NCBI GenBank assembly: GCA_951804945.1 | Contig: OX638151.1 | Location: 54,932,001-54,996,000 of the forward strand | Length of the DNA: 64,000 nucleotides | DNA from: Podarcis cretensis | Lineage: Eukaryota | Direction: 5' to 3' | The notes under the pieces: generated by a model | What the model was told of the DNA's origin: nothing | Databases searched by the model: none | The model's input: the letters and a program-made list of their open reading frames with translations, nothing else | Shown: positions 5,807 through 39,697 of the stretch, one piece after another | Numbering within the stretch: position 1 is the stretch's first letter | Layout: each line of letters begins with the position of its first letter | Translations under genes and position numbers: made by a program

Positions 5807-6778
5807 ATGGCAGAGTCATACTCCTTGTCTTTCCACACTATTGGTGGAGTCAGAAACCCCGCAGGACAACTGGATACTGGCTACGCCATGCAAAGAACAA
5901 TTATGATAATAACTATTCCAATTTGTGCTTTAGGATTACTTGGCAATGGAATTGTCTTCTGGCTTCTTTGGAACAGGATTCAGAAAACTAACTTCACTGT
6001 GTATTTCCTGAATATGGCAGTTGCTGATCTTACTGTACTCTCCTACTATGTAACAGCTTTCGTTTTATTTTTGAAATCTGTTCCGATCAGCATATACCAT
6101 TTACATATAGTAGAGTTGGTGCATTCATTTGGATTCAATGCCAGCACCTATCTGCTTACAGCTATCGCAGCTGAAAGATACCTCATGGTCTTTTTCCCAG
6201 TTTGGTATCAAGCTAGACGGCCAAAGTATCTCTCTGAAATTATGTGCACCGTTTTATGGGGTCTGTCCGGCCTGATGTCACTGGTGTTGTATTGTGCCTG
6301 CTATCTACAATTTGAGTCCACGGTCAACGAAAAGAATGCAAGTTGTGAGCCTTCAAAAATGTTCAGAGTGATATTCAACCTCCTGGTTTGTCTTCCCATC
6401 ATGGTCTTTTCCACTTTGATCCTTCTGATCAGAATGCTGAGGACAGAGCAAACGCCTCCGGCAAAGCTGGACATCACCATTGTGGCCACAGTTCTCCTCT
6501 TTATTCTGTTTGCTGCTTCCGTGAGGATCATTGATATCATGGCACGTTGGGTTCCAACCATACATGTACCAGTGCTCTTTTTAATCTTACATTTTCTTGA
6601 TTCCATAGACAGCAGTGGAAACCCTTTTGTATATCTTTTTGTTGGATATACAACAAAAGGAGAGGTTGGCAACAAGCCCATCCAGACATATCTTGAGAGA
6701 GCTTTCTTGGATGAAGGAACTGAGAGTGCTCCAATGAATACAGGAAAGGCTGTGACCTGGGCCTCAGACATAAGATAG
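5807..6778 (+). CDS. MAS-related GPCR (MAS1/MRGPRH-like), gene A, 323 aa, single coding exon
   Basis: Seven hydrophobic segments; GLLGNGIVFWLL, NMAVAD, AERY, FFPVWY..RPKYLS, GNPFVYLFVG. Acceptor ttttggcAG at 5768-5769; first ATG after it is 5807. The ORF-track start at 5756 is intronic. Confidence 0.93.
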   Translation: MAESYSLSFHTIGGVRNPAGQLDTGYAMQRTIMIITIPICALGLLGNGIVFWLLWNRIQKTNFTVYFLNMAVADLTVLSYYVTAFVLFLKSVPISIYHLHIVELVHSFGFNASTYLLTAIAAERYLMVFFPVWYQARRPKYLSEIMCTVLWGLSGLMSLVLYCACYLQFESTVNEKNASCEPSKMFRVIFNLLVCLPIMVFSTLILLIRMLRTEQTPPAKLDITIVATVLLFILFAASVRIIDIMARWVPTIHVPVLFLILHFLDSIDSSGNPFVYLFVGYTTKGEVGNKPIQTYLERAFLDEGTESAPMNTGKAVTWASDIR

Positions 6779-9329: not shown

Positions 9330-9560
9330 TAGATGTTCCCACACTCCAGAAAACAGTTGCTGTGAGGTCATAAGATTCTTACATTCCATTTATTACATAG
9401 GAACACATCACCACAGTGCTGTGGTTCATACTTTTGCAGTAGTAAGCTCCTGAGAAGAGTAAAAGAGTGGCCTCCTAAGGTTGAAAAGACAACTGGAGGT
9501 TAACTATAATGGTAGCATTTCTTTGTTTATCTTGAAGCTCATTATTTTATGCTTGTTGGT
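9330..9560 (+). promoter_or_regulatory. Upstream module of gene B
   Basis: TGAGGTCA at 9363-9370, TATTACAT, AAGGTTGAAAAGACAACTGGAG. Confidence 0.6.
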
Positions 9561-11743: not shown

Positions 11744-12050
11744 TATGAGGAAATTGCATACCCTGTCATTCACTTCATTAAAAAAACCTGAGGGTGTGAT
11801 TGTTCTAAAATGAGTTCGTTCTTGCGAGTTGCTCAATATGTTTCCAGTGCAAGGTAGGCTGTATTTTCTTACCCGCAACAGCTAGATGACAGAGCACTGG
11901 TACTTGATAGAAACTGAACCACCATAAAGCCTCATTGCTATGTAAAGCAATATTGACTATTTGAATGCTTTTCTGCATATGAGTATATTTGGTACAAAAC
12001 ATTTCCTTGCAGAAGGGTTGTATATGAAACATTCAAATTTGACTCAAAAT

Positions 12051-12237
12051 AAAAAAAAATCCTTCCAGTAGCACCTTAGAGACCAACTAAGTTTGTTATT
12101 GGTATGAGCTTTCGTGTGCATGCACACAAAAGTTCATACCAATAACAAACTTAGTTGGTCTCTAAGGTGCTACTGGAAGGAATTTTTTTTATTTTGTTTC
12201 AACTACGGCAGACCAACACGGCTACCTGCCTGTAACT
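12051..12237. mobile_element. Penelope-like element terminus collapsed into a 120-bp palindrome
   Basis: 12061-12120 and 12121-12180 are inverted repeats with 2 mismatches, followed by CAGACCAACACGGCTACC. Confidence 0.65.
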
Positions 12238-12854: not shown

Positions 12855-13820
12855 ATGACAGATGCAATTGCTTTGTCTTCCCACACTGCTACAATCAATA
12901 CAATTTATGCACAACTGGAGAACTGGGCAAAGAAGCAATATTTCTTGGAAACAATTATCATTTTATCTATTCCAATTTGCATCTGGGGATTAATTGGGAA
13001 TGGAGTTGACTTCTGGCTTCTTTGCTTCAGGATCAAGAGGACTAGGTTCTCAGTTTATATTCTCAATTTGACAGCTGCTGATCTTATTGTAAACATCTAC
13101 TACATTATGGTTTTTATCACATTTTTGGCACAAATTTATGTCAATCTCTACTTTTCAAGTGTAATGGAGATTATATATTTATTTGGATACAATACCAGCA
13201 TCTACTTGGTAACAGCTCTCACTGCTGAAAGGTACCTCACTGTCTTCTTCCCAGTCTGGTATCAACGTCACAGGCTAAAGTACCTCTCCATCATTGTGTG
13301 TGCCGTGTTGTGGCCCTTGTCCTGCCTGGTGTCACTGGTGGCCTATATTTCCTGCTATCCAAGGTTCCTTTCATCTCACAACGAAGAGAGAGCAGATTGT
13401 ACAGCTGCAACTATATTTGAAATTACAATAACTTTTCTGGTTTTCCAACCCATCATGCTTTTTTCTACCGCAGCTCTTTGTGTCAAAATGCAAAGAGAAG
13501 CCAAGCAAAGCGCTCCAGCAAGACTTGATATCACCATCACCATCTTAGCTGTTGTATTTCTTATCTTTTCTTTCACAGTTCGAACTGTTGATGCCATCGC
13601 ATATTGGCACCAAACACTAGATGCACCAGTCCCATTTCTACTTTCTCTGTTGTTTGATTCCATCAAGAGCAGCATCAACCCTTTCATATATCTTGCTGTT
13701 GGATGTTGGAAGAGAGGGAAGCCCATCCATATGTTTCTTGAGAGAGCTTTGAGTGGCAAAGCAGAGAGAACTCAAGTAGACCAAGAGGAGACTGAGAAGC
13801 ATCCAGAGCCTCAAATGTGA
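12855..13820 (+). CDS. MAS-related GPCR, gene B, 321 aa
   Basis: 7TM; GLIGNG, NLTAAD, GYNTSIYLVTALTAERY, INPFIYLAVG. Acceptor AG at 12825-12826; an in-frame TGA just after it fixes the start at 12855. Confidence 0.93.
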   Translation: MTDAIALSSHTATINTIYAQLENWAKKQYFLETIIILSIPICIWGLIGNGVDFWLLCFRIKRTRFSVYILNLTAADLIVNIYYIMVFITFLAQIYVNLYFSSVMEIIYLFGYNTSIYLVTALTAERYLTVFFPVWYQRHRLKYLSIIVCAVLWPLSCLVSLVAYISCYPRFLSSHNEERADCTAATIFEITITFLVFQPIMLFSTAALCVKMQREAKQSAPARLDITITILAVVFLIFSFTVRTVDAIAYWHQTLDAPVPFLLSLLFDSIKSSINPFIYLAVGCWKRGKPIHMFLERALSGKAERTQVDQEETEKHPEPQM

Positions 13821-14346
13821 ACTGAAAAGGCTTCTAAGTCAAAGAATATAGACTGGCATTTCTGGTTCCTGAATAAATATATTATGACTTGTTTATTTTA
13901 CTGTTTGTTACTTGTAGGCTACAATACTCACCTAGGGACCATGGAAAAGTCATCTGCAGATGGGGTAACAGGGCCCTCAAATCACCAAAGAGGTGTATCT
14001 TTGCAGGATTAAGCTTCTACGAAATGCAGAAGTATGATCAAACAAGGTGGAAAAGAAAACTGGAGAGTAACCCTGGTGATACTGACAACTTTGTTTTGCT
14101 AAATAAATACTAGGCCTGTAATCCTCACTCGACATACCTGGAAGTAAGCCCCATTGAATTCAATAGGACTGACTTCTGAATAGACACAGTTGGGACTGAG
14201 CAGTAACCATGCCTTTTAGATAGGCATTGTGTCTATCTAAAAGGTATCGAAATGCCACAGCCCAGTTAGGGAATGGAGTTAAATAGTGAGCCTTGAACAA
14301 CAGCTTTGCTCTGTGTGCCAAGTTGACCAGGCTTAAGATATGCAGT

Positions 14347-17024: not shown

Positions 17025-17530
17025 TACCAGGGTAATCAAAGCAGTCTCTTTCCTTGATCTGAAGCCAGATTTCAATAGGTACAGAGAAGTATGTGAGTTT
17101 AATCATATTGTGGCTGACAGTCACTATGAGGTCATGAAATTCTTGTATTCAGTTGTTACACAACCAACACTTCATAATAGTGGCACTTGGTCACATCTTT
17201 GCAGAATTCTATTACTGTGAGAGGAAGACGAATGAGAAAAGAAGGTTGAAACGAAAATTGGAGTGCAACTATGTTAGTATTGACTTTTCTGCTTTGCAGC
17301 TGCTTACGTCAGTGTGATTCTCAACATCTATATTCATGTTAGTCTCATCAAGTCTGCTTAACAGGCTTTATAGGAACTTGCCAGAGATAATTTGGGGTAT
17401 CTCTACTTGCTTCTCCCAACAACATCCATTCAGTAATCAAATTGTGAAGCAGATCACTGTATAAAAGTATATGGCCACCCTTCATATTTTGTGATGGTTG
17501 CAAAGGAATGAAAAGGGGAAGAGGCGAGAA
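17025..17530 (+). promoter_or_regulatory. Upstream module of gene C
   Basis: TGAGGTCA at 17127-17134, TTGTTACAC, GAAGGTTGAAACGAAAATTGGAG. Confidence 0.6.
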
Positions 17531-18078: not shown

Positions 18079-19051
18079 GTTGAAAGGAATAATAGCTTAT
18101 ATTGATAATGTGATACCAGAAGAAGGCATATCGCCTTCCAGCTCTGCTGGTGTAACCAAGAAACCCTACAGACTTCCCAAGGAGCTTGGAACAATTTTTA
18201 TTGCAACTATTCCAGTCAGCATCTTTGCATTCATAGCGAATGTAATTGTCTTTTGGCTTTTCTGCTACAAGATCAAACACACTAACTTAACCCCCTATTT
18301 TTTAAATCTTACTATTGCAAATCTTCTGACAAGCTTCTGCAGTGCTGAAGTTGCTTTTTTATATTCTATAAATGTACGTCTAGTTTCTCCAATTCAACGT
18401 CTAATCCAGATGCTCTATATATGTGCCTATGACACCAATTTATACATCTTTACAGCTCTCACTGCTGAAAGGTACATCACTGTCTATTTCCCAGTCTGGT
18501 GGCAACATCACCGGCCTGAGTATTTCTCAACCATACTGTGTGTGATTTTATGGATGTTGTCTTGCAATCTGTCACTTCTGTACTTTTTTTTCTGCTTCCC
18601 AAAATTCTTCATAACCGCTAAGGAATTTGAATCTCAATGTGGAACTTCAAGTATAATATCCTTAATAACTGAGGTGGTTCTTGTCCCATCCAGCGTGTTG
18701 TTTTTCTCTTTGGCCATTTGGATCAGAACCCTAAGATCACAGCAAAAGCCCCGAGAAAGACTTGACATTACCATTGTGGCCATAGCAACAGTGATTCTTA
18801 TCTTCAATGTCCCAACCAGAGCTACATTTACTTTTTCATTTTGGAAACTCCCAGTAGATTTGACTACATTGAAAATCATTACTGTGTTACTGGATTCAAT
18901 CTGCTGCAGTGCCATTGCTATTGTGTACCTTATTGTTGGATGCTGGAAGAGGTGGGAAGCCTTAAAGTCCTTCCATATGCTACTTGAGGGAGCACTGGAG
19001 GATACAGAAAACATGCCAGAGTCAACCAAAACAGATGAGGTGCAAGCCTGA
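18079..19051 (+). CDS. MAS-related GPCR, gene C; ORF intact but start codon uncertain (possible pseudogene)
   Basis: 7TM ORF 18062-19051 with AERY, FPVWWQHHRP, RLDITIVAIA. The conserved acceptor tttgacAG is at 18077-18078, and the homologous ATG position reads ATA (18113). The only early in-frame ATG (18062) lies upstream of the acceptor. Confidence 0.8.
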
Positions 19052-19423
19052 AAATATCTCTGGCATCAGAAGCCAACCCCCCCAACCCCCGCATCAGATG
19101 ATTATAGAAAAACAAGGACATTCTTTCACAGTTCCAGAATAAATTTATTACGAATGCTTTGATGTTGTGTTCATTATTTCTAATACACCCATCTCGGCCC
19201 TATACTAGGGCAATCTCCAGTCCGGATGGCTTCTTATGCAGAGCCAGTTGGTGGGCTGAGAGTCAAAATCAGAGGGCAGAGGTGACTGAGCCACCAAACA
19301 CCGAGTTTGACATTTCTCAGTGTGGTCAATAAGCAGGGATCCTACAAAGGATGCAAAAGTGCAGTCAAGGTAACTGAACAGCGGAAAAAGGCAAGCAGAC
19401 AACCACTATGAAAAGGAGGTCAG

Positions 19424-19572
19424 ATAGAATCAGAGAACTGTAGAGTTGGAAGGGACCACGAGGGTCATACAGTCCACCCCCTGCAATGCAAGAATCTTTT
19501 GTTCAACGTGGGGCTTGAACCCATAACCATGAGATTAAGAGTCTCATGCTCTACCAACTGAGCTATCACAGC
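19424..19572 (-). mobile_element. tRNA-Lys(CTT)-derived SINE with CR1-type 3' tail
   Basis: Reverse complement reads TAGCTCAGTTGGTAGAGCATGAGACTCTTAATCTCATGGTTATGGGTTCAAGCCCCACGTTG, then GGTCCCTTCCAACTCT…ATTCTAT. Confidence 0.8.
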
Positions 19573-19972
19573 TTCATGAGGTGGATGGACAATAGAAGAG
19601 GAAAGCGAGAAGCCAGGACGCCCAGAGAAAAGAAGTATGTTGGTGGATATATAAGTATATCTGGAATGACTGAGAACAGCATCCAGTACATACATCTCTG
19701 AGGAAAACCTTTGAAGCAAATGCTAGAGAAGTAGCCTGGTGTTGTCAATGCTGGACGGAACATTTTGAAGTGCAAGAGCTCACCATGGTATCTCCCATAG
19801 GCTAACCATGCTGCCGCCAGATCTGTTCATATAAACATCTGCATGTACATATTTTCCCCAACTCATGCCATCTGTTTTATGTGCCTGAAACTTCTGTATG
19901 CTTGCTTTTATATGACTTTTGTGTTTTTACTGTTGCTTTACTGGCTTTAGGTTTGTGTTTTTGTTTTAATAT

Positions 19973-20064
<92 letters not shown>
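19973..20064 (+). repeat. (GATA)n(GACA)n microsatellite
   Basis: Read directly from the sequence. Confidence 0.95.
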
Positions 20065-20065
<1 letters not shown>

Positions 20066-21418
20066 TGACACTACTTAGAGATTTTCAAAATATTAGGCAG
20101 TACAGTTGATCCACAACATTGGGGGGGTTGCGTTCTGGGGGTTGCACATAAAACTAAAATTATATATAGTTGAAACTACCCCAGAATTATCCCTGCATGA
20201 GCACCCCCAACCTTTCTGAAGCTGGAGGGCCGAGCAGGCTTTGCCTTCCCTATGAAGGTTCTGGTGAGATCTGCTTCCGGTTCCGCTCTGCCTTAATGGA
20301 ACCAGACCCCACAACAGCAGGAGATCATTGGCAAAGGAAAAACAAGGATGATTGAGGGTAATTCTCCTTGCAAATTTCCCCCCCAGGGATGGGGGAAATG
20401 GGCTTCACTCGCAGTCCATCTCAGTACCTGGCTCTTGCTCTGACATGGAATGCGGGGGCAGGGAGGTGCTGAGTGCAAAATCACTTTGCCTGGTGAAAAC
20501 CCTCCAATGCTGCCATTAAGAAGCAGAGGTTCTCCTGTTCATTAGAACTTAATTGGACTAAAGTACAGGAACGTGCTAGAAGAGATGAGATCACAAACTG
20601 TGGAACAAAACCAATTGCAAGGACTTTAAGGTTTGAACTCGAGATAAGACTTCATTAGGTGTAAAAGATGTGGGGAGGGGAGCTTATAGTTCTTTATTTA
20701 AAGTTCTCTACATTAATGATTTGGCAACCTCCTCTGAATGTTAGTTCAAATTATATTTGTACAAGCAAGGATGGAAGAAATTGGATTATACATATGGAAT
20801 ATAACATTAAATGGAACTGTGTGTATTTAATAAAAGGAAAAAGGGAGGGAAGTTCTATTTTGCAAAAGGTTTACAATGGAAACTTAGAGCTGACTCTTCC
20901 TCACCCTTTATTATTTATGGAGTGACTTGGAATTTATTTATAAGAAGACTTGGAATTTAATTTAATTGGAAGTATAATTGCTCATATATCCTCAGTTGGA
21001 CAGAAGGATGAAAGGAGTCTGCAAACTGCCAAGGAATTGATAAGGTTCATTACTGAGTCATCTACAGTTCGACAGACCACTCTTCTTCCCAGGCTGAGAG
21101 GAAAAATGGTGAGAACAGGTTATTTATTGGGACAGAGTGACTTTTGCAGCTGTTGTTAAAGTTGCAAAACAACGAAGCACAGGATGGAGCAATGGAGAAA
21201 TTTCTGGAACAACAGTGGGATATCAGCTCCGTCCAAGGCATGACAGATAACAGCAACAACCGGGGGGGAGGGGTGGAGAAGAGAGACATAACATCTTACA
21301 AGGACGGGAAGAAACACAATGGACAGAACAATTGCCACACACAGGAACAAAAAAGATATAGTCTGAGTTCCTCGCTTGCAGTTTTAGAACTCATTTAATG
21401 TGTCAACATGAATAGAAG

Positions 21419-21530
21419 TTATTAATACTGCAGTTGTTGAATAAGGGGTTGTTATTATGATCAGAATGTAATGGTTATTAATACTCCAGTTGTTGTATAA
21501 GGGATTGTTATTATGATCAGAATGTAATGG
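21419..21530 (+). repeat. 56-bp tandem duplication
   Basis: TTATTAATACT…AGAATGTAATGG twice, with few mismatches. Confidence 0.85.
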
Positions 21531-21698
21531 AAATTAATAAGATTTTGAATGCAGAATTAAAGCAAATTATCAAGCCATCAATCTTTATCTAAATTATCAG
21601 TATTTGAACAATTGGTAATAATGATTGTATTATAAATTGGTATTCTTATAATGAGGCTATTACTGAATTGTAACTGAAAAGTAATAAAAATGTGCGCG

Positions 21699-21748
<50 letters not shown>

Positions 21749-22722
21749 GTTCACCCCAGAGCCTATAGGAAGGCTTCCCAGGATCTGGTTAGCAAGGTGG
21801 AGAACTTAAAAGCTCCTTCTGTGGTGGGAAAACCAGGCACAGAGAGAGCTTTTAAGCTCTCTACCTTGCTTACCATGCTCTGGGAGACTCTCTTGCAGGC
21901 CCTGGAAGTTCTCACAAGATTTCACAAAGCTGTCCAAGATCTTGCCAGAGGCTCCCAGAGCTCATTATCTGCAGCCCTTCCTCATATGCTCCTTCCATGG
22001 GAGGTTTGGAAGGTGGCAAGAAGATAGTAGGCCTTTTCCTGTGATGGCCCCTGCATGGGAAATGCTCTGCCTGGGAAAGCACAACTGAAACCATTCTTAT
22101 CTAGTTCTAGGTGCCAGGCAAAGACTTTTCTCCCCCACTCCTAGGCTTTTGGACCTTAATTTAAAGAATATTGTGGCCTTTTTAGTTGGGCAGGGCTTGT
22201 AACCCTGACTAGGTCTCTGAGCTAGGGCTAAGGACAAATGCTCCACGATGCATCGTTCGCCTGCCTTCTGCTGTGGCTGAGAGGTTAGAGAATTTCCATG
22301 TGCAATATGTGGACCGTAAGAAAGTTGTTTCCTTTCCCTTGGTGGAAATGGAAGCCTTCAAAACTTTTTTAGAAACCATGCAAGGAGTGGCTCCAGTCCC
22401 ACTTTCTAGTATCTCTCCACCATTCAGGAACGGAACCAGTCCAGACATTTGAAGAGGTTACGATGACTGATGATATGAAAAGATCTCCAGAGGACTGAGA
22501 TAACAAACGAGGCAGAGGCGCTGGCTTCTCCAGTGGATGGGGGGGGCGGGGGCGGGCTGGTGTGACATTATGCAATGTGGCGAGGAGCCGGGGTGGGGCC
22601 AAACACCCTGGCCCCCTCAAAATACACATGGGGGGGCTCAAACTGCCTTGGCTCCTAGGAGTCGGTGCCTATGAAATGAGGTAACTCTGTTCTGTGAACT
22701 GCCCTGAGACCTCCGGGTATAG

Positions 22723-22850
22723 NNNNNNNNNNNNNNNNNNNNNNNNNNNNNNNNNNNNNNNNNNNNNNNNNNNNNNNNNNNNNNNNNNNNNNNNNNNNNN
22801 NNNNNNNNNNNNNNNNNNNNNNNNNNNNNNNNNNNNNNNNNNNNNNNNNN
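22723..22850. other. Assembly gap (128 N)
   Basis: Run of N. Confidence 1.
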
Positions 22851-23350
22851 TCTACCAGGGAAATCAAAGCAGTCTCCTTCTCTTCATTTGAAGCTATATG
22901 TATATAGGTACAAGGTGATATCACTGTGAGCGTAACTATATCACACCTGACAGTAGTTGTGAGGTCATGAGATTCTAGTATTCAGTTTGTTACATAAGTC
23001 ACACTTCATAGGAGTGGAACTGATCATATTATGCAGAAGCATGGTCAAAGAAGTTTGAAATGAAAATTGGAGTACAATCACGTTAGTACTGACTCTTCTG
23101 TCTTGCCACTGCTTACGTGAGTTTGATTTTTAAACAGCTACATTTCTGCTAGTTCCCCTCATCTTCTATCTGTTTTGCAGGTCTTGTAGGAACCTGCAGA
23201 ATTAATTCTGACTGTATGTGGTCTATTTCTCCAAAGAGAACCCAAACAGCGATCAGATCTTTAAGCAGTTTGCTACATAAATAATATATACCTAGCCTTT
23301 GTACTTTTGTGATGGGTAGGAATGACAGAGGGGCAATGAGAAAATCTTAT
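22851..23350 (+). promoter_or_regulatory. Upstream module of gene D
   Basis: TGAGGTCA at 22960-22967, TTGTTACATAA, candidate donor CTTAC|GTGAGT. Confidence 0.6.
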
Positions 23351-23667
23351 ATCTGTTATGGCAAAAAAAAAAAAAAACCTGAAGGAAAAGTTACAATATT
23401 TTTGTTATGGGGAAAATAAAATTTCAGTAGCATAATAGAACATAAACTTTATTTTCCCCATAACAAAAATATTAAAATTCTAGTTGCTGCTAACGAGGGA
23501 GAAGGGGTGAAGGCGAAACTTTTATTATTGAACTATTAAACTGCATTTTTGTTGGAATCCATTTTGCTCAGGCAATATATGAAAGGCCTCCAAGTGGAGT
23601 TAGCTTGTTTTTGCAACTGCTCAGCATTTCGTTGAAGTCAGCAGTTGCTAATCTTAAAATACATATA

Positions 23668-23908
23668 CAGTGGTCCCTCAGGTTAAGTACTTAATTCGTT
23701 CCGGAGGTTCGTACTTAACCTGAAACTGTTCTTAACCTGAAGCACCACTTTAGCTAATGGGGCTCCTGCTGCCGCCGTGCCGCCGGAGCACAATTTCTAT
23801 TCTCATCCTGAAGCAAAGTTCTTAACCTGAGGTAATATTTCTGGGTTAGCGGAGTCTGTAACCTGAAGCGTATGTAACCTGAAGCGTATGTAACCCGAGG
23901 TACCACTG
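23668..23908. mobile_element. Tigger-like MITE (same family as 4578-4803)
   Basis: CAGTGGT…ACCACTG; TA TSD. Confidence 0.85.
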
Positions 23909-23974
23909 TACCTTAAAATGCCTTACTGCGGCTGCTGTGAGTGTGGAGGAAGCAAGTGTCCCATCCCTAGGCCA

Positions 23975-25595
23975 GATGGGAAAAGGCCTAGCATCAGGGA
24001 GCGGGGTCCACACTTGCTTCAGGTCGTGGCGGATGTTCTCCTGGAGACACCTAGTTTGGTTCTTCTAGGGGATTTTAACACCCATGCTGACACAACCTTA
24101 CAAGGGGCTGCTCGGGACTTCATGGAAAGCATGGCTTCCATGGGGCTGTCCCTGAATAAGTCTGGCCCAACTTATAACCGCGGACATGCCTTGGACCTGG
24201 TGTTCATCTCTATGGATGTTAGTGATCTGACACTAAGTAAAATCAAAACTAAAGAAGTGCCATGGTCAGATCACTTCCTGGTGCATCTGGACTTCTCCAC
24301 GACCCTTCCCCTCTGCAGGGAGGTGTGACCGATTCAGATGGTCCACCCCCACCACTTAATGGACCCAAATGGTTTCCAGAGAATGTAGGGTATGTTTTAT
24401 CCCATGTTGATGGCATTTCAGCTGATTCCCTGGTGGCCTGCTAGAATGTGGAGTTAACCAGGGCTATTGACTGTCTGGCTATGAAGCGCCCTCTCCAATT
24501 GCATGGAGCCTGGACAGCCCCGTGGTTTTCCCCGGAGCTGAGGGCGATGAAACAGTCGTTGAGATGGCTAGAGAACCGGTGGTGGAAAACTCATTCTGAA
24601 TTGGACCGGAAACAGGTTAGAGCTCAATGTTGAGCCTACCAAGTGGCAATAACGATAGCGTGGAGGACTTTCTTCACCACCTCTACTGCATATGCAGAAA
24701 GTAGCAGCAGGAGACTCTTTCAGGTGGTTCGCAATTTAACAGAACCGCCTTTGGCATCGGGGCCTAGAAAAGACCCCAATATCTCCTGCAATTATTTTGC
24801 AAATTTTCTTGCAGATAAAGTCTCTCAGTTTCGGAAAGAAGTAGACTCCACCGTGGGAGCAGGGCCGGAGTGGGGAAGTGCTAGTCAAGTTGCATGGAAT
24901 CAGTTCCAATCTGTTACCTCTGAGGATGTGAACATGCTGCTTAGACAAGTGAAACCAACCACCTGTCTCCATGATCCTTGCCCATCGTGGCTAATAAAAG
25001 CGGGCCGGGAAGGGCTGAGTGATGGGCTCTGTGGGGTGGTGAATGCTTCCCTCTGTGAGGGAGCCTTCCCAGCCACGCTAAAAGAGGTGGTTATTAAACC
25101 GCTTCTTAAAAAAACATCTTTAGACCCGGCTAATATGGCCAACTATCGCCCAGTCTCAAATCTTCCATTTTTGGGCAAGGTGATTGGGCGGGTGGTTGCT
25201 GAACAACTCCAAGCACGCCTGAAGGATGCGGACCATTTGGATCCCTTCCAATCGGGATTCAGACCTCATCATGGGACTGAAATTGCCTTGGTCACGCTGG
25301 TTGATGATCTCTGGTGGGCTAGGGACAAAGGTGAAAGCTGTTTCCTAGTTCTGCTGGATCTCTCAGCAGCCTTTGATACCATCGATCATAACATCCTTCT
25401 GCACCATCTAGAGAAGCTGGGAGCACTGTTATACAGTGGTTCTCCTCCTTTCTCCTGGGCCGTGTCCAGAAAGTGGTGATGGGGGATGAGTGTTCAAACC
25501 CCTGGGCTCTCACTTGTGGGGTCCCTCAGGGTTCCATCCTCTTCCCCATGCTTTTTAACATCTATATGGAGCTGCTGGGAGAGATCATCAGGGGA
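23975..25595 (+). mobile_element. Disrupted L2-clade LINE ORF2 (APE endonuclease C-terminus and RT) in the intron of gene D
   Basis: LLGDFN, GHALDLVF, WSDH; NYRPVSNLPFLGKV, DPFQSGFRPHHGTE, LLDLSAAFDTIDH, GVPQGS; contains stops and frameshifts. Confidence 0.9.
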
Positions 25596-26135
25596 GAGGT
25601 CTGCACGATGCTAATGAAAGAGAGGAGGTGGACTTAGCATGGCTTTCCCGATCGGGGAAGGGGGCGGCTGCCGGGGACGGAGGGAGGCAAGAAGGAGCCA
25701 TGTCTCTGACAAGGGAAGGCGGAATCAGTATCAGCAACAGCAACAGCTATTTTCAAATTCTTACTTTGAGTATTCTACCATAGGATAGTGCTTTGTCCCA
25801 CTTAAACTAAGCATTCATATGAATTCATCTCTGAATTTTCTAAGATTTTGCTTAAAAAAAATGGTCCCCCCCCCCACTTATATTAACTGAGTCACTTAAG
25901 TCACTCCTTACTCATATTTTTGCTAAACTAGAAAGTCCTGAACGCTGCAACCATTCCTCATGGGGGGTGGGGGATGAATTCTGATATCCGCCTATTACAA
26001 GCAGCCAAACAAGGGAGAGCATAAATAAATTCAAAATTGGCAATTCTCTGCCAGATTTTGGGAAGTGGAATACTGAAAAACTCAATACCTTAATAATTAC
26101 AAATTATATGTGATTTCTATAGGTTGAGAAGAAAA

Positions 26136-27107
26136 ATGGAATACATTGATAATGTCATGATGGCAAAAGCAAACACCTTGTCTTCCCACACTGCTGGTGC
26201 ACCCAAGAAAATGGTCAAATACATGCAAGCTTCATACTATTTCAGATTAAATATGCTGATTGCATCTGTTCCCATCTGCATTGGTGGATTAATAGCTAAT
26301 GCAATTGTCTTGTACCTTTACTGCTGCAAGATCAACAAGCCAAAGTTAGGCCCATATTTTTTAAATGTGACCTTTGCAAATCTTATTATAATCTTGTGCA
26401 ACCTTGAAGTGGCTGCTTTTTTTCTCGGAGACATGAAAACCTCTACAGTAGTCCAACGTGTAATGGAGATGCTTCATATTTTTGCATATGATACCACCTT
26501 ATATATCTTCACAGCTCTCACCGCTGAAAGGTTTCTCACTGTCTATTTCCCAGTCTGGTGGCAACATCACCGGTTCAAAGATTTCTCTGTCTCAATGTGT
26601 GCGATTTTGTGGATGGTTTCTGGCCTGGAGTCACTTATGGCATATTTTTCCTGCTATCCAAGATATGAAATTGTTAATGTTAACACTGCCATCTGTACAA
26701 TTGCAAATATAGTAGAAGTCATCATGGAAGCCATCCTTTTTTTCCCCAGCTTGTTCTTCTTCACTTTGGCCATTTGGATCAGAAGTCGAAGACCACAGCA
26801 AAAGCCTCTAGCAAGACTTGACATCACCATTGTAGTCATAGCTATTCTGATTCTGATTCTCAGTGTCCCAACTAGATTACTTCATGCTATTTCATATTGG
26901 GTGGAATCAATGAACTGGTATCTGTTGACGACCACTGCTCTGTTACTGGATACTTGTACCTGCAGCAGCATTCCTTTTGTATTCCTCATTGTTGGAAGCT
27001 GGAAGGGGCAGAAAGGCTTTGAACCCTTCTGTTTGTTTCTTGAGAGGGCTTTAAAGGATACTGAAGACACAGCAGAGCCAACAGCAGCGAACCAGGAGCA
27101 GGCATGA
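26136..27107 (+). CDS. MAS-related GPCR, gene D, 323 aa
   Basis: 7TM; acceptor AG at 26121-26122, ATG at 26136; AERF, FPVWWQHHR, RLDITIV, SSIPFVFLIVG, FLERALKD. Confidence 0.92.
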   Translation: MEYIDNVMMAKANTLSSHTAGAPKKMVKYMQASYYFRLNMLIASVPICIGGLIANAIVLYLYCCKINKPKLGPYFLNVTFANLIIILCNLEVAAFFLGDMKTSTVVQRVMEMLHIFAYDTTLYIFTALTAERFLTVYFPVWWQHHRFKDFSVSMCAILWMVSGLESLMAYFSCYPRYEIVNVNTAICTIANIVEVIMEAILFFPSLFFFTLAIWIRSRRPQQKPLARLDITIVVIAILILILSVPTRLLHAISYWVESMNWYLLTTTALLLDTCTCSSIPFVFLIVGSWKGQKGFEPFCLFLERALKDTEDTAEPTAANQEQA

Positions 27108-27672
27108 CAATATCCTTGTCCTCAGAAGTAATTTCCTTTTAAAAATAAAATAAAATGTATACGTTTTATGGAGAAAAAACGACATTCCTTCCAAGTTTCA
27201 GAATAAATTTATTTCAAATACTTTAAGGTTGTTCTTTACATTGATTCTAACACACCCACCTAGGTGTGGCACTAGGGCCACTTTCTCCTTTGGATGGCCA
27301 ACTAGGCAGAGGCAGCAGGTGGCCTGAAAGTAGAGGACTATAGTCAAAACTAGAGGGCAAAGGTGACTGAGCCACCAAAGACTGACAGTGATACCATTTC
27401 TCAATGTGGTCATTTAGTAAAGGCCCTCAAGGGAGAGCAAAAGTGTGGACAAGACGATCAGACAGTTGAGAAGGGCAAGCAATCAATACGAAAAAGAGGT
27501 TAGGAGTGGCAACAGAGGATGAAAGTGAAGAGTCTGGAAGCCCAGAGGAAAGAAAGAGACCTCTTGGTGTTATCACTGCTGCAGGGATAAGATCTTAAGT
27601 ACAGGTGCTCACCGTAACACTTCCATTGCCATGCTATGATCAGTTCTGCTCCTGTATCTATACACGCATGTA

Positions 27673-27913
27673 TAGTGGAACCTTGGTTTTCGAAAGTAAT
27701 CCGTTCTGGAAGACCGTTCGACTTCCAAAACATTCAAAACTCGAAAACTGAATACGGAATCCTCAGTACAACAGGGAAACTCAAAATGGAAGCCACGTGG
27801 CATGTTTGGCTTCTGAAAATCATTCAAAAACCGAAGCAGTTACTTCCGGGTTTTCGGCGTTCAAAAGCCGAAACGTTCGACAACGGAGATGTTCGAAAAC
27901 TGAAGTTCAACTG
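27673..27913. mobile_element. Tigger-like MITE (different subfamily)
   Basis: Degenerate TIR AGTGGAACCTT…AAGTTCAACTG; TA flanks. Confidence 0.65.
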
Positions 27914-28402
27914 TAAATGTGTGTTGTCCATGCGTATTCACGAAAAGGCTCATTTTGGGGAATTAGCAATACTACTCTTCAGATATTTGAGACTGTTAAA
28001 AACGTAAGGACATAAATTGAGCCTTCTGAATCAGGCCCACACCCCATCTCGGCCCCTTCTCATGGAAGCCAGCCAGGTGCCTGGGAGAAGCCTTCAAGTT
28101 AAGGCATAAGCACAACAGCATTCTCCCCTACTCGTTTCCAGCTAGTAGCCAGAGGCATAGTGTCTCTTGACAGTGAAGGTAGAACACAGACATGTAGCTA
28201 GGAGCCATGAATAGCCTTATCCTCCATTAATAGCCTTATCCAGCTGCACCTTTAACTCACAGATTAACTCACACCACCTCCTTGGTCACTTCCATTGTCC
28301 TTTTCTGAACTGTTCCTGAACTGTGTCCAATTCCACAATAACCTTTTTGAAGTGAACTGACTGAATTGTACACAGTATTGCAAATGCAGTCACACTATAG
28401 AT

Positions 28403-28532
28403 TAGGATTGCCATGTTTCAAAAAGTGAAAATCCAGACACAAAAGTTGTTGAGCTTATTTTAATCAAATTCATCAAAATTTACACTACCGGCATGGCTAT
28501 GTCCTGAAGATTCTGGACGTGTGGCAATCCTG
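28403..28532. mobile_element. hAT-like MITE
   Basis: TAGGATTGCCA…TGGCAATCCTG; perfect 8-bp TSD CTATAGAT. Confidence 0.8.
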
Positions 28533-28996
28533 CTATAGATTTGTATAACTGCATTATGGTCTCAGCATAATTCCTTTCCATTCCTTTCCCTAGCATGGAA
28601 TTCATTTTTTTTCTTCACAGCAGCAGCACAGCTTTACTGGTACAAAGAAATTATTGCACTGGCTTTAGTAAATCTGCTTCGTTTGATGAATATCTTGTGG
28701 ATTAATATTACTGTACTTTCTTCAGAGAGTTTGCATTAAGCACACAACAGCTACAATTATATTTACTTATAAATATTAAAGGCAGAGCTTCACAAACTAA
28801 GATTCACTGGAAATATAGGTCATCGCTCTGTTTGATTTTGCATTTTGCATTTATTTTTTATTTTAAATTTTTTTGGTTTTGCATTTTAAATGTTTTTAAA
28901 AAATAAAAAAATGAATTAAGTTTTTAAAGTAGTATCATGCTGATACATATTGATTTAGAAGCAACACAAGCAGCTCTTTGGCTTGAAATTCCACTT

Positions 28997-29630
28997 GTGT
29001 AACAAACTGAATGTTGGAATCTCATGACCTCACAGCAATTGTTAGCCAAGGTGAGCATTAGCTCATCTGTGATATCATTCTGTATCCATTCCAACATTCA
29101 GTTTGTTACACTTCACAATAGTGAAGCAAGTCACAACTTTGTAGGAATGTTTTCTGTACAGAGCAGAAGTATGATCAAAGAAGGTTGAAATGAACATTGG
29201 AGTGCATCTACCGGTATTGTCTTTTCTGTCTTGCAGCTGCTTTTGTGAGCTTGATTCGTAACCATTACATTTTTGTTACTGCCATCATTACCTAACTAAT
29301 TAACTTGCCAGACTTAATTCTGATTCTATGTGGCCTATTTATCCTGAGTATCCTGTCCAGATAGTTAAGCACAGGCATAGGCAAACTCGGCCCTCCAGAT
29401 GTTTTGAGACTACAATTCCCATCATCCCTGACCACTGGTCCTGTTAAGCTAGGGATGGTGGGAGTTATAGTCTCAAAACTTCAGGAGGGCCGAGTTTGCC
29501 TATGCCTGGTTAAGCAGATCACTGCACAAATAATATGTCTCCAACTTTGCCCTTTTTTGTTGGTGGAAGTGGCAGAGGGGCAAAGAGAGGAAGATTTAAA
29601 AAGGCAGAAAAACTGATATCTGTTAGTCAT
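28997..29630 (+). promoter_or_regulatory. Upstream module of gene E (5' part inverted, hAT MITE inserted)
   Basis: TGACCTCA at 29025-29032 (reverse orientation); the rest of the module is forward from 29088. Confidence 0.6.
29372..29508. mobile_element. hAT-like hairpin MITE
   Basis: Long TIR CAGGCATAGGCAAACTCGGCCCTCC; 8-bp TSD GTTAAGCA. Confidence 0.85.
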
Positions 29631-31735
29631 TTGCCTATCAGCACTTCTCTCCAAAATTACAATGGGAAAGTCATAAGTCTCTTGAAGCAAAAACGCATCA
29701 TAGCTATGTGCTTTGCTAAGATTGTTTAGTGGGGTGGAGTTCCCTCAGTTCACTTTGATTCCAATCCACGATGTAAGTCAGTTCTGAGAGAAGGTAAAGC
29801 CAGGATCGCTCAGATGTCCTTTAGAGAAGCCTTCCTCGGTGACCTCCCAATGTTGTGTCACCATAACTCCCACCTTCACTGAACTCTGGCCATGTTTCCT
29901 GGGCCAATCTGAAGTTGGAGACCAACATCTGGGGACACCAGGTTGAGGAAGTTTCATGTAAAAGTATCTGTGCTAGGCATCATCCCATGTGACCACATCT
30001 TCCATGGCCTCAATGCCAGTTGTTCCTGCCGATCCCAACAGCTTAACAACAGAAAAGGAATAGTAGTCACATGGACACATAACAGGCCTGTACTGCAGCA
30101 GCAATAATGACTATGCATCCAACTACTACATGAAGGCAACTACACCAGAAACTGGAAAATGTCCTGGTCCAGTGGGGTTACTAGACCTTAGTACCATCTC
30201 TGATGGATTCTACAAGTGGTGTCCTCACTTTGAAATTCCATCCAATTGTGCCACCTTGTGCCTGAACAAGATTTGTCTGAGCAATATTTTGTGATTATCT
30301 TGGGATATGGGATCAATTGACCAGCAGAGGCCAAATTTGTAACTAGATTCTTGAAAAATATCTGCTATCCAATGGGTGTGCAGAATGTCAGAAGCTGCTG
30401 GAATCTGTGGATGGATTAACGTCCAGAGAACTGAAGCAGTAAGTCCAATGTTTCTTGAATCATTACGAGAATAACAAAATCATGGTATTCTTTCTCTCTC
30501 AATTTGATTACAATAGTGCAGAAACCATATCTCTGTTAGTTGCTACCCATGATTGCACACATCAGTCCCCTCCCCAACAGAATATCCAGAGCAAAACAGG
30601 TTATAAAAAAACATCCATGGTACACTATCCAGCATTTATCATTTGAAACACAAACACAATTTAAAAATCTGAAGAATTCTAAAAAAGTCAGTATCAAAAC
30701 TACTGTTATAATATGTTAGATTATAGAGTCCTACAGCAGTCAGGATACAAACAGCAATCTAGATTGCTATGAAATAACACAACTTTTGAATTTTTTTCCA
30801 GTTCTATATACTCAGCCACCTTGGAATTAACCATTCTGGAAATACTATTTACAAAGAAAGAAGTAAAAAAGAATTAAGAATCTCAGGAAAAACAAAGCAC
30901 CTAGTCCAAATTCCCCTCTAAATTTCTAAAGTCTTTGTTGAACAACTGGCTATCCTCTTCAAAACTATGTTAAATGAGTCACTTGAAATTTTGTAAAGAC
31001 CAGATCTGAGGCAGTAATCGCAGTAATATCAAACACAGGTAAATATCAAACAAATCCAAGCTTTTTCTGTCTAATTTCTCCTTCTTAATCAAGACTACTC
31101 ATGAAATAGGGCTGCACTGCATAAATGAGCTGAGCTTCTGAGTACTTTGTGTTAATCTTTTTACATTACCTTTGGGGATGGGGGATAATACACAACAGCG
31201 ATTACTATGTGCCATGAGAATGCATTCTTTATACCAGGCAGCAGGGGGGTCTCTGACGCATGGGCCTTATGATCCCTGTCACAGTTCCCAATTTGGCCCA
31301 CAAGGTCATTTCCCCTCAACCATGCCTACCGTCTCCATTCCTGAAGTCATATGTGACATCAAGTGTGGGCAAGTGGAAATGAGCCCTTAATGTGCTCTCA
31401 ACAATTCTTTGGCAAGGAGTGGCTCACTATCAGCACCTGTTAGCTGGCCTACCAGTGCTTTCAACAGACAAACCTGAAGGGCATGGTCTTCCCAGACAGG
31501 GATGGGGAATGTTTAAGCCTTCGCATTTTGTTTGACCACAGCTTCCATCAGCCCCAGCAAACATGGCCAATGATTAGGGGTGATTTGAGTTGAAATTCAG
31601 CAAGATCTGGAAGGCCATGTGCTCTCCCTCCCTGTTCTAGGGAATATCCATGGGGATGATATGTGCTAGACCTTTCTGTAGAAAGAGTGGGTGGAAGTCC
31701 ACAACAGATTTTGTTGTGGCCAGACATTCTCAATA

Positions 31736-31976
31736 CAGTGGTACCTCTGTTTACGAACTTAATCCATTCCAGAAGTCCGTTTTTAAACGGAAACCGTTCT
31801 TAAACCAAGGTGCACTTTTCCTAATGAGGCCTCCTGCCGCTGGTGCCCTTCCACCGTTCAGCTTCTGTTCGTAAACCAAGGTAACGTTCGCAAACTGGGA
31901 CTCTACTTCCAGTTTTGCGGAGTTCGTAAACTGAATAGTTCGTAAACAGGGCTGTTCTTAAACCGAGGTACCACTG
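31736..31976. mobile_element. Tigger-like MITE
   Basis: CAGTGGTACCTC…GAGGTACCACTG; TA TSD. Confidence 0.85.
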
Positions 31977-32197
31977 TACCTCCAAATGGAGGCTTATATC
32001 CCTCTTTTACAATCCAGTACAAAGCAGCCAGACAAGCGAGATCACAAATTCGAACTGAGCTGTTCTCAGCTGAAACATAGGCAACTAGAATACTGTCAAG
32101 CAGGTGGTCCTTTTCAAAATTTCCTACCTCTGTTACATAAATATCAGCACCTTAATAATTACTAGTTGTATTTGATTTCCACAGGTTGAGAAGGAAA

Positions 32198-33163
32198 ATG
32201 GAAAACATCAATAATGTCATGATGGCAAAGGCAAGCACCTTGTCTTCCCACACTACTGATGCATGCAAGAATACTGTCAAATACATGCAAGCTTCATACT
32301 TCTACAGATTAAACGTGCTGGCTGTATCTATTCCCATCTGCATCATTGGATTAATAGCTAATGCAATTGTCTTGTGCCTTTACTGCTTCAAGATCAACAA
32401 GCCAAAGTTAGGCCCATATTTTTTGAGTGTGACCTTTGCAAACCTTATTGTAATCTTGTCCAACCTTGAAGTGGCTGCTTTTCTTCTCGCAGGAGTGGAA
32501 ACCCCTTTAGTGATTCAACGTCTAATGGAGATACTTCATATATTTGCATATGACACAAATATATACGTCGTAACATTTCTCACTGCTGACAGATTCCTCA
32601 TTGTCTATTTCCCAGTCTGGTGGCAACATCACCGGACCAAGCATTTCACGGTAATGATGTGTGTGATTTTGTGGTTCGTTTCTGGCCTAGAGTCACTGGT
32701 GGAATATTTTTCCTGCTATGCAACAGTCAGTACTTGGGCTTATAACACCTGTAGAACTGCAAGCGTGCTGGCACTCCTCATGGAGGTCATTATTTTTTCC
32801 TCCTGCATTTTCTGTTTCTCTTTTGCCATTTGGATCAGAATGCAAAGATCACAGCAAAAGCATCGAGCAAGACTTGACATAACCATTGTGGCCATAGCAA
32901 TTCTTATTCTTTTGCTTACTGTCCCAGTTAGACTTGTTAATATTATTTCACTTTGGGTAAGTGCAATAGATTATTATATGTTCACTAGCATTAGTCTGTT
33001 ACTGGATACTTGTACCTGCAGCAGCATTCCTTTTGTATTCCTCATTGTTGGAAGCTGGAAGAGGCAGAAAGGCTTTGAACCCTTCTATATGTTTCTTGAG
33101 AGGGCTTTAAAGGATACTGAAGACACATCAGAGCCAACAGCAGCGGACCAGGAGCAGGCATGA
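32198..33163 (+). CDS. MAS-related GPCR, gene E, 321 aa (closest paralogue of D)
   Basis: 7TM; acceptor AG at 32183-32184, ATG at 32198; ADRF, FPVWWQHHR, SSIPFVFLIVG. Confidence 0.92.
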   Translation: MENINNVMMAKASTLSSHTTDACKNTVKYMQASYFYRLNVLAVSIPICIIGLIANAIVLCLYCFKINKPKLGPYFLSVTFANLIVILSNLEVAAFLLAGVETPLVIQRLMEILHIFAYDTNIYVVTFLTADRFLIVYFPVWWQHHRTKHFTVMMCVILWFVSGLESLVEYFSCYATVSTWAYNTCRTASVLALLMEVIIFSSCIFCFSFAIWIRMQRSQQKHRARLDITIVAIAILILLLTVPVRLVNIISLWVSAIDYYMFTSISLLLDTCTCSSIPFVFLIVGSWKRQKGFEPFYMFLERALKDTEDTSEPTAADQEQA

Positions 33164-36351: not shown

Positions 36352-36790
36352 TCTACCTGGACAATCAAGTCAGGTTCTCTGTCAAACCCAAAGCAGATGC
36401 GAGGTTGAAATGGATCCAGAATGATGCCATGGCGCACATCACCTGACCATGGCTAACAGTTGCTATGAGGTCATGGGATTCTCATATTCTCTTTGTTACA
36501 TACAGCACGCATCATCATAGTGAGGTGGGTCACGCTTTCACAACTCCTACAGTGAGCGGAAATGTAACCAAAGAAAGTTGAAAAGAACCTTGGACTCATA
36601 CTAGCATTTATTTTTATTTCTTGCAGTCATTCACTTCAGTTTGATTTTTTAGATTTTCATTAGTTTCATTAGCTCTTCATTTAGCGGGAATTCTGGGAAC
36701 TTGCCTGTTTCATAATTCTGGCTATATCTGAACTGATCTGTTTTTCCTGTGAACAAGCAGCCAGCACAAATAATATGCCTCAATCACCTG
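36352..36790 (+). promoter_or_regulatory. Upstream module of gene F
   Basis: TGAGGTCA at 36466-36473, TTGTTACAT, GAAAGTTGAAAAGAACCTTGGA. Confidence 0.6.
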
Positions 36791-38761: not shown

Positions 38762-39697
38762 ATGCTGGAACAGAAAAACAATCTATCTGCCCATGCTGCT
38801 GATGCAGAGAACGAGAATGTCAGCAATGAAGGCAACACGAAGGAAACAATGATCATCATATGCATTCCAATCTGCATTTTGGGATTAGTTGGAAATGGAA
38901 TGGTCATTTTGTTTCTTCGCTATATGATCAAGAAGAATAAGTTTAATGTGTATGTCATGAATATGGCTATGGCTGATTTTGTTGTTGTTCTCTATCTATT
39001 GAGTTATTTTGCATTATTTGTAGAACCAGCTCCTATCAATGCACACACTTCACGTTTTCTAGAGATAACATATATTCTTGGACGCAACTCTAGTTTCTAT
39101 ATATTAACAGCTCTCTGTGCTGAAAGGTATCTGTCACTTTTTTCCCCTGTCTGGTGTCAACGTCACAGACCAGAGAACCTCTCAGCTATTGTGTCTGCTA
39201 TTCTGTGGGCCTTCTCATGCGTAATATCTTTTGTAGAAGAATTTACATGCTATCCAAGATTCTATGCACTTATGAATGAAGACACTTTCCCTTGTGATAT
39301 TGCAAAAACAATTGAAGTTATCACCGACTTCCTGATTTTTGTGCCCATCATGGTCTTTTGTACTGTGGCCATTTTTATCAAAAAGCAGGAGAAAACACAA
39401 ACAATGCTCGACAAGACGATTGCAGCGACAGTTATTCTGTTTCTAATTTTTGATGCGTCAGCTAGACTTTTGGAATATATAGACTACTGGCATGGTGATA
39501 TAGTAGAAATACCAGTGTTTACATTCTCTGTGTTATTTGATTCCATAACCAGCAGCATCAACCCTTTTTTATATTTTGCTATTGGATGGTGGAGCAGGCA
39601 AAACACCTGGGAAGCCTTAGAGATTTTTGTAGAGAGAGCTTTGAATTATGAAACAAACACAGAACAAACAACACAAACAGACGAAGAGGAGACTTGA
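38762..39697 (+). CDS. MAS-related GPCR, gene F, 311 aa
   Basis: 7TM; acceptor AG at 38726-38727, ATG at 38762; GLVGNG, NMAMAD, AERY, INPFLYFAIG; N-terminal sequons NLS and NVS. Confidence 0.93.
   Translation: MLEQKNNLSAHAADAENENVSNEGNTKETMIIICIPICILGLVGNGMVILFLRYMIKKNKFNVYVMNMAMADFVVVLYLLSYFALFVEPAPINAHTSRFLEITYILGRNSSFYILTALCAERYLSLFSPVWCQRHRPENLSAIVSAILWAFSCVISFVEEFTCYPRFYALMNEDTFPCDIAKTIEVITDFLIFVPIMVFCTVAIFIKKQEKTQTMLDKTIAATVILFLIFDASARLLEYIDYWHGDIVEIPVFTFSVLFDSITSSINPFLYFAIGWWSRQNTWEALEIFVERALNYETNTEQTTQTDEEET

Follow-up and report, generated by a model that had tools for sequence, protein, structure and literature searches.

Lizard MAS1/MRGPR-like receptors with a neutral sodium-site residue and an altered NPxxY motif in a Podarcis cretensis gene array

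In class A (rhodopsin-like) G-protein-coupled receptors (GPCRs), D2.50, N7.49 and Y7.53 are regarded as near-obligatory for activation, and a receptor without D2.50 has no allosteric Na+ site. Members of the MAS1/MRGPR family lack C3.25 and have a cysteine pair atop transmembrane helices (TMs) 4 and 5. Human MRGPRs keep D2.50, N7.45 (or S), N7.49 and Y7.53, residues described as needed by MRGPRX2. Here we analyze a 64,000-nucleotide stretch of the lizard Podarcis cretensis (assembly GCA_951804945.1, contig OX638151.1, positions 54,932,001 to 54,996,000), called the window below, in which a scan for open reading frames (ORFs) revealed six intact single-exon GPCR ORFs, genes A to F, all on the + strand, with open frames of 321-329 codons and no stop or frameshift in the coding exons. 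We propose that three of them, genes C, D and E, represent one lacertid branch of a squamate MAS1/MRGPR-like array in which the sodium-site aspartate was lost before the NPxxY residues. Already known are the fast evolution of MRGPRs, with MRGPRX reported to be under positive selection (PMC3221663), sodium-site change between paralogues (PMC6037435), and reptile MAS-like clusters, one of which lies near MRGPRH and is described as a possible new subtype (PMC6504862).

The closest relatives of these genes in both sequence and fold are human MAS1, MRGPRD and MRGPRX1-4, with which they share a single coding exon, the absence of W6.48 and Y5.58, the TM4/TM5 cysteines, and tandem expansion with fast evolution. 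The best sequence matches of gene D among solved structures are human MAS1 (E 1e-26), MRGPRD and MRGPRX1, and gene D shares 96% identity with a 'Mas-like' protein of Podarcis lilfordi; given these matches, we regard the locus as a lacertid MAS/MRGPR array. Gene D is 79-81% identical to its Zootoca and Lacerta counterparts, and gene E is 94% identical to that of P. raffonei and 86% to that of Lacerta. An exact-sequence lookup of the six window proteins in the annotated protein collection found none of them. In C, D and E, position 3.25 is Q107, and C173 and C187 are invariant, fitting the family's TM4/TM5 cysteine pair as a putative disulfide; position 6.48 is N, S and T, respectively, and 5.58 is A, so that W6.48 and Y5.58 are missing, as in the rest of the family. 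D2.50 and NPxxY, which human members retain, are gone, and we therefore treat C, D and E as a family variant.

Structure models, which an earlier sequence-only reading of this DNA had proposed building, gave seven-TM folds for gene D (predicted local distance difference test, pLDDT, 87.9) and gene C (pLDDT 87.3), a confidence measure that cannot tell functional receptors from recently dead ones. The top Foldseek matches of the gene D model are MRGPRX1, MrgD and MAS1, although its identity to the human MAS1/MRGPR structures is only 19-25%. In the gene C model, TM7 runs unbroken into the helix-8 region, where confidence drops; this is consistent with A7.50. The PF00001 profile scores 36.2 for C, above the cut-off of 30.5, and 20.2 for E, below it, with no match for D. 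By the predicted folds of C and D, these genes are class A receptors, with a partly eroded PF00001 profile. Among the seven x.50 anchors (N1.50, D2.50, R3.50, W4.50, P5.50, P6.50, P7.50), gene D lacks only D2.50, gene E lacks D2.50 and P5.50, and gene C lacks D2.50, P5.50 and P7.50, losses that weaken the label 'canonical' but not family descent.

We anchored residue numbering on D2.50, R3.50 and P7.50 and checked it against human MAS1 and MRGPRD. Position 2.50 is N in C, D and E versus D in A, B and F; position 3.39 is N, T and N versus S throughout A, B and F; and positions 7.49-7.53 read IAIVY, IPFVF and IPFVF versus NPFVY, NPFIY and NPFLY. The TM7 losses are thus N7.49I in all three genes, Y7.53F in D and E, and P7.50A in C. 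The DRY motif reads ERY, ERF and DRF in C, D and E, ERY being found also in A, B and F. All three genes carry E2.59 and D3.37, the latter an N-to-D change relative to the GYNT motif of MAS1. These residues, listed by the sequence-only reading, were all confirmed at codon level. Further core changes, absent from that reading, are G1.49A, L3.43F/V, S5.55F, F6.44I and S7.46C. In place of the signature of Na+-modulated receptors (D2.50, S3.39, N7.45/N7.49) we observed N2.50, N/T3.39, C/T/T at 7.45 and I7.49, and R3.50 is kept in C, D, E, their orthologues and all lacertid rows. The derived states are rare in an outgroup of 121-125 family rows taken from the 150 best representatives: N2.50 occurs in 3/122, D3.37 in 2/124, F7.53 in 1/123, and I7.49 and E2.59 in 0/124 and 0/121, respectively. 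Y5.58 is present in 0/124 of these rows.

Genes A, B and F keep D2.50, S3.39 and NPF[VIL]Y, as first read, but they do not provide the canonical baseline that had been assumed. None of the six genes has N7.45, which is D in A, K in B and T in F, and P6.50, retained in C, D and E, is replaced by S, T and S in A, B and F; for these reasons the three are a poor canonical control. The TM6 proline kink is accordingly missing from the very paralogues that keep D2.50 and NPxxY. N7.45 is likewise kept in 0/12 squamate-clade rows with D or E at 2.50. Serine at 3.39, taken as the reference state, is present in A, B and F but is not the family norm, since the outgroup has G in 59/125 rows and S in 52/125, with G in human MAS1 and MRGPRD and, as G116, in MRGPRX2 (PMC13266011). 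Within the window, N7.45 survives in a single copy, a seventh MAS/MRGPR gene, of which only the tail is included (window 2-208, + strand), with a canonical NPFVY. The aspartate at 7.45 of gene A (window 6608) is common to agamid and viper orthologues and puts a second acid into the pocket. The lysine of gene B (window 13665) is common to Rhineura P0014 and Erythrolamprus P0031 and could replace Na+ by a salt bridge to D2.50, a parallel to the R7.45-D2.50 bridge proposed for chemokine receptors (PMC6037435). In chemokine receptors, too, sodium-pocket positions vary between paralogue lineages, with changes at 2.49, 3.35, 3.39 and 7.45, but modeled Na+ binding via D2.50 is described as kept (PMC6037435), whereas C, D and E have lost D2.50 itself and NPxxY.

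To place these changes in order, we used a tree of 35 rows, comprising the six proteins of the window plus 29 selected from 167 that were fetched (named squamate matches and three outgroup rows, with fragments and near-duplicates excluded), from which nine trait columns had been removed; the squamate rows, named 'proto-oncogene Mas-like', are automatic annotations only. C, D and E formed a single clade with six lacertid orthologues (support 100/99). The D orthologues of P. lilfordi, P. raffonei, Zootoca and Lacerta and the E orthologues of P. raffonei and Lacerta are intact, and N2.50, E2.59, D3.37 and I7.49 are invariant in 9/9 lacertid rows, so the orthologue check suggested earlier came out in favor of conservation. 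The three paralogues had been counted as separate cases; the single clade, together with a sequence tract shared by D and E from TM7 onward, does not allow this, and three independent origins of the C, D and E changes are ruled out on the same grounds.

The lacertid clade groups (93/88) with genes of Elgaria (P0005), Varanus (P0009), Pogona (P0010) and Laticauda (P0019). These genes and those of an R3.39 clade described below resemble C, D and E in having N2.50 wherever TM2 is present, and the Elgaria, Varanus and Pogona genes share D3.37 as well. Unlike C, D and E, P0005 and P0009 retain S3.39, N7.45 and an intact NPxxY, while P0010 reads NPFVF and P0019 SPFIY. Because the Elgaria and Varanus genes have N2.50 and D3.37 alongside an unaltered NPxxY, both of these states predate the NPxxY changes, contrary to the view that pocket and switch changed together; simultaneous change is ruled out by the tree order. 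As reconstructed from these sequences, D2.50N came first, then D3.37, then N7.49I with E2.59, G1.49A and F6.44I on the lacertid stem, and last, after that stem, Y7.53F in D and E and P7.50A in C. Lacertids and toxicoferans diverged well over 150 million years ago.

A second clade (100/99) combines N2.50 with a pocket arginine, R3.39, and lacks E2.59 and D3.37. Its members read IPFIF in Elgaria P0017, Anolis P0026 and the Phrynosoma fragment P0038 (without TM2), NPLIF in Phrynocephalus P0013 and SALIL in Pogona P0021; it has no representative in this window. Uniting the C/D/E and R3.39 clades is rejected by an approximately unbiased (AU) test (p=0.012), and I7.49/F7.53 therefore probably arose twice, with IPFxF originating independently in the R3.39 clade; conversion between paralogues or reversals could also account for the pattern. 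All N2.50 rows lie on one side of the best tree, where N2.50, common to skink, anguimorph, iguanian and snake genes, needs one change. In total the tree has two changes at 2.50 (one of them to E in Salvator) versus nine at 7.49 and seven at 7.53, and Y7.53 is kept in 3/9 non-lacertid N2.50 rows versus 11/12 squamate rows with D or E at 2.50.

We consider it very improbable that the pocket, NPxxY and E2.59/D3.37 were selected jointly, as a single set of mutually compensating changes serving a new mode of activation. G1.49A, E2.59, F6.44I and N7.49I do all fall on the C/D/E stem, four of the residues in this set are invariant among the lacertids, and IPFxF probably has two origins. The Elgaria and Varanus genes nevertheless combine N2.50 and D3.37 with NPxxY intact, the IPFIF clade does without E2.59 and D3.37, and at conserved sites fewer of the derived states (11/17) than of the retained ones (17/18) are invariant across six orthologues. 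Moreover, 2.59 and 3.37 presumably lie two to three turns above the sodium site or face away from it.

The two IPFVF genes also do not count as two observations. From position 26939, D and E differ by 5 mismatches in 180 nt, as opposed to about 20 per 100 upstream. All 42 of the 42 D/E-diagnostic sites, scored in three species, fall at residues up to 268, and past that residue sites 288 and 294 group by species rather than by gene. D and E have thus evolved in concert over IPFVF, helix 8 and the tail, and since they are homogenized by the shared tract they are not independent at TM7.

Our preferred reading, which we hold with about even confidence, is that C, D and E are Na+-insensitive GPCRs with a re-packed core that would still signal, and it fits D and E best. 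Without D2.50, no Na+ would be bound, and N7.49 and Y7.53 would be deprived of polar partners, Y5.58 being absent family-wide, so that the water-filled core would be free to re-pack hydrophobically, here with I, F and C. Activation would pass via TM3/TM6 packing to the retained R3.50, intracellular loop (ICL) 2, basic ICL3 and helix 8. Basal activity might be raised, and the extracellular half would be diversifying towards new ligands; the second N2.50 sub-clade, with IPFIF, would have followed the same path, probably independently. Two precedents indicate that receptors with such changes can be basally active. MrgD, in which the TM3 sodium residue is absent, is described as showing high basal activity (PMC9287403), and ORF74 of Kaposi's sarcoma-associated herpesvirus (KSHV), with S2.50 and V7.49, is reported to signal constitutively, its inactive state being read as destabilized (PMC12462484). 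ORF74 resembles C, D and E in its neutral 2.50 and beta-branched hydrophobic 7.49, but it derives from a chemokine receptor, keeps Y7.53 and has VRY, and with this unrelated origin it serves as an analogy only. Among the Na+-insensitive, constitutive, biased and scavenger options raised by the sequence-only reading, the choice lies beyond sequence, although a scavenger appears less likely because R3.50 is kept. More tentatively, and possible rather than probable in our judgment, squamates at large may harbor an old MAS-like branch that lost the Na+ aspartate, changed NPxxY to IPFxF at least twice, and is still G-protein-active, with its ligand face under positive selection.

Several results weigh against still-signaling receptors of this kind. 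In MRGPRX2, D75N (2.50) is described as inactive with low surface expression and N275T (7.49) as highly deleterious (PMC13266011), and Y279A (7.53) is described as abolishing G-protein and arrestin responses (PMC8158387); each of these is a lone substitution in a distantly related receptor, and replacing Y by A is more drastic than replacing it by F. The whole-gene ratio of nonsynonymous to synonymous rates (dN/dS), calculated by NG86 and GY94 from the window sequences alone and with low power, is 0.96 in C, D and E (p=0.75 against 1) and 0.65 in A, B and F (p=0.0005), a value near 1 being uninformative alone and not a sign of neutrality. Family-conserved residues are kept at 19-21 of 40 sites in C, D and E versus 26-34 of 40 in A, B and F. 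On a pocket list of 16 positions, 13 of which passed the conservation filter, change is not significantly enriched: 9/13 in D versus 10/26 equally conserved sites (p=0.07), p=0.15 in C and E, and nothing significant at any of three conservation thresholds. On the tree, the single N2.50 clade is supported only at 74/39 with the trait columns removed (93 by the Shimodaira-Hasegawa-like approximate likelihood ratio test, SH-aLRT, with them left in), N7.49 is lost in 3/12 rows with D or E at 2.50 as well, and the association of N2.50 with Y7.53 loss offers just one independent pair for a correlated-evolution test. Gene C has neither an annotated orthologue nor an exonic ATG before TM3. Finally, the contrast between receptor halves described below weakens to 1.40-1.49 and 0.73, neither different from 1, when separate synonymous scales are used, and A, B and F show a contrast in the same direction (0.86 versus 0.46).

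Part of this evidence would suit relaxed selection or decay in a birth-and-death array, with marginal copies tolerating drift and C a young pseudogene or the source of a truncated product once its start codon was lost. For C, D and E together we consider this unlikely; it carries more weight for gene C, with its replaced Met codons and lost P7.50, its branch, the longest in the set (0.63), and its lack of an annotated orthologue. The whole-gene ratio and the unenriched pocket agree with it, as do a P. muralis E protein annotated as a 212-aa fragment beginning in TM3 and the degraded-looking related rows of Pogona (P0021) and Rhineura (P0022). In a neutral simulation with indels uncounted, however, the chance of a stop-free branch was 0.0005 for C, 0.07 for D and 0.06 for E, while the aligned C/D flanks have 8 gap openings in 342 nt. 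Family-conserved sites have a dN/dS of 0.54 (p=0.039), and N2.50 genes occur in eight non-lacertid genera (Elgaria, Varanus, Pogona, Phrynocephalus, Tiliqua, Laticauda, Anolis and, without TM2, Phrynosoma). Long-term decay is unlikely on the sequence evidence, given that other lacertids have intact D and E genes and that the stop-free C branch has a probability of about 0.0005 under neutrality; on this point the first reading was borne out.

The dN/dS comparison that had been suggested gave about 1 for C, D and E over the whole gene but separated the two halves of the receptors, amino-acid change being strongly topology-dependent. D and E differ at 55/123 positions of the extracellular half versus 34/154 of the cytoplasmic half (p=9e-5), and at variable sites their dN/dS is 1.88 (p=0.037). 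On a single synonymous scale, dN/dS in C, D and E is 1.80 in the extracellular half versus 0.64 in the cytoplasmic half, or 1.76 versus 0.61 without the conversion tract, and moving the boundary by three residues gives 1.62-1.95 and 0.56-0.65. The contrast between halves remains significant with separate scales (p 0.015-0.038). Likewise, 91/154 cytoplasmic versus 45/123 extracellular positions are invariant over eight D/E-lineage proteins.

The same pattern bears on whether D and E, and perhaps C, are non-signaling or arrestin-only decoys or scavengers like C5aR2, with a diversifying ligand face and an unused, eroded activation core. The fast extracellular half, the loss of about half of the family-conserved residues and the loss of function reported for each single 2.50, 7.49 and 7.53 substitution in MRGPRX2 all speak for such a role, and C5aR2, too, is a paralogue with an altered NPxxY beside a canonical receptor (PMC5494583). 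We nonetheless rate it as improbable. C5aR2 is described as having Leu in place of R3.50 (PMC5494583), whereas R3.50 is invariant here; ICL2, basic ICL3 and helix 8 are retained, and the cytoplasmic positions are the more invariant ones; and loss of Y7.53 in MRGPRX2 is reported also to stop arrestin recruitment and internalization (PMC8158387), which a scavenger would need.

Gene C requires separate treatment. One splice acceptor just before the coding sequence is common to all six genes, and in gene C it lies at 18078|18079. The claim that all three ORFs are intact holds as regards stops and frameshifts, but gene C has no in-frame ATG between this acceptor and TM3, where the first one would give 213 aa; at the three Met positions of D and E it reads ATA, ATA and CCA. 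The ATG at 18062 lies within the splice-acceptor tract and, judged from sequence, would be usable only via an acceptor near 17998, for which a similar CAG|G is found also in E and F, or with a retained intron. Such an acceptor would speak against loss of the gene. The predicted upstream exon of C has an open frame without an ATG, its status being deduced from a match to the donor consensus and from model P0162 of P. lilfordi, whose N-terminal extension matches the upstream block of gene D. A search for C orthologues among annotated proteins gave four matches, all of D/E type at 45-49%. Half or more of the C-region words were found in 19 of the 24 rows listed, spanning eight studies, seven besides the possible source, with no RNA dataset among the rows listed; such matches show DNA in related organisms, not an open frame there. 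With no in-frame ATG ahead of TM3 in its coding exon, and no annotated orthologue, gene C is the doubtful member of the trio; it has long been conserved, its present status is uncertain, and it may be a recently impaired copy.

The pattern first noted is real, but less tightly linked and wider in taxonomic reach than first read. Stepwise loss with open frames offers intermediates, NPxxY in Elgaria and Varanus, NPFVF in Pogona and IPFVF in lacertids, that could show whether activation depends on the sodium/water network or is just tuned by it and could reveal second-site changes that make its loss tolerable. If the wider squamate reading is correct, NPxxY, NPxxF and IPxxF on N2.50 form a natural, replicated series of class A switching without that network. 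The array also samples acidic, self-neutralized and empty pockets on one scaffold (7.45 as D in A, K in B and T in F, with R3.39 in the sister clade), and should the receptors prove silent, they would instead become candidates for a decoy lineage within the MAS family. Their relatives include human itch and mast-cell receptors. In the open-licence literature searched, we found no description of a squamate N2.50/IPFxF clade.

Table 1. Coordinates, in window positions, of the six receptor genes, their predicted 5' exons and the D/E conversion tract.
Feature	Coordinates	Strand	ORF	Details
Gene A, comparison gene	5807..6778	+	5807-6778	D2.50, S3.39, D7.45, NPFVY, without P6.50
Gene B, comparison gene	12855..13820	+	12855-13820	D2.50, S3.39, K7.45, NPFIY, without P6.50
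Upstream block of C, predicted 5' exon	17025..17518	+		Donor after 17307; homologous in D/E
Gene C coding exon, MAS-like GPCR	18079..19051	+	18062-19051	Codons N2.50 18320, E2.59 18347, D3.37 18431, N3.39 18437, C7.45 18902, I7.49 18914, A7.50 18917, Y7.53 18926
Upstream block of D, predicted 5' exon	22853..23333	+		GTGAGT donor after 23116
Gene D coding exon	26123..27107	+	26136-27107	ATG 26136; codons N2.50 26379, E2.59 26406, D3.37 26490, T3.39 26496, T7.45 26958, I7.49 26970, F7.53 26982
Gene-conversion tract common to D and E	26939..27118	+		TM7 from ~7.39, helix 8, C-tail; covers IPFVF
Upstream block of E, predicted 5' exon	29108..29344	+		Donor after 29244
Gene E coding exon	32185..33163	+	32198-33163	ATG 32198; codons N2.50 32441, E2.59 32468, D3.37 32552, N3.39 32558, T7.45 33014, I7.49 33026, F7.53 33038
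Gene F, comparison gene	38762..39697	+	38762-39697	D2.50, S3.39, T7.45, NPFLY, R3.36, without P6.50

In addition to the family changes described above, the lizard clade differs from human MRGPRs in having gained D6.34, R6.52 and D7.42, which are invariant in A to F and in nearly all squamate-clade rows shown; D7.42 occurs in 0/124 outgroup rows, and R6.52-D7.42 is a possible clade-specific salt bridge. Rhineura P0022 joins a non-GPCR N-terminus, which we take to resemble sepiapterin reductase, to a segment spanning TM3-TM7 that has D3.37 and I7.49; it is probably a chimeric annotation built on a degraded relative.

The predicted 5' exons of C, D and E each carry a five-codon upstream ORF at an equivalent position (~17231, 23040 and 29170). 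Weaker copies of the upstream block precede A, B and F, and one more follows B (2552-2768, 9353-9399, 14024-14065 and 36453-36515). Model P0162, the P. lilfordi D protein, has its N-terminus at 19226-19261, within the 3' flank of gene C, and the D and E proteins of P. raffonei are entered as isoforms X1 and X2, which hints at shared or read-through transcripts, both being automatic models. An assembly gap of 128 N (22723-22850) lies directly upstream of the gene D upstream block, and the predicted intron of D contains a fragment of a long interspersed nuclear element (LINE) in which endonuclease and reverse transcriptase domains are present (23894-25479, + strand). A Pfam scan of 16 long ORFs or frames, including the LINE reverse transcriptase frame, gave matches only for two LINE pieces. 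Short palindromic elements (self inverted repeats), resembling miniature inverted-repeat transposable elements, are found at 12039-12202, 29368-29508 and 45906-46045, the latter two being related to each other.

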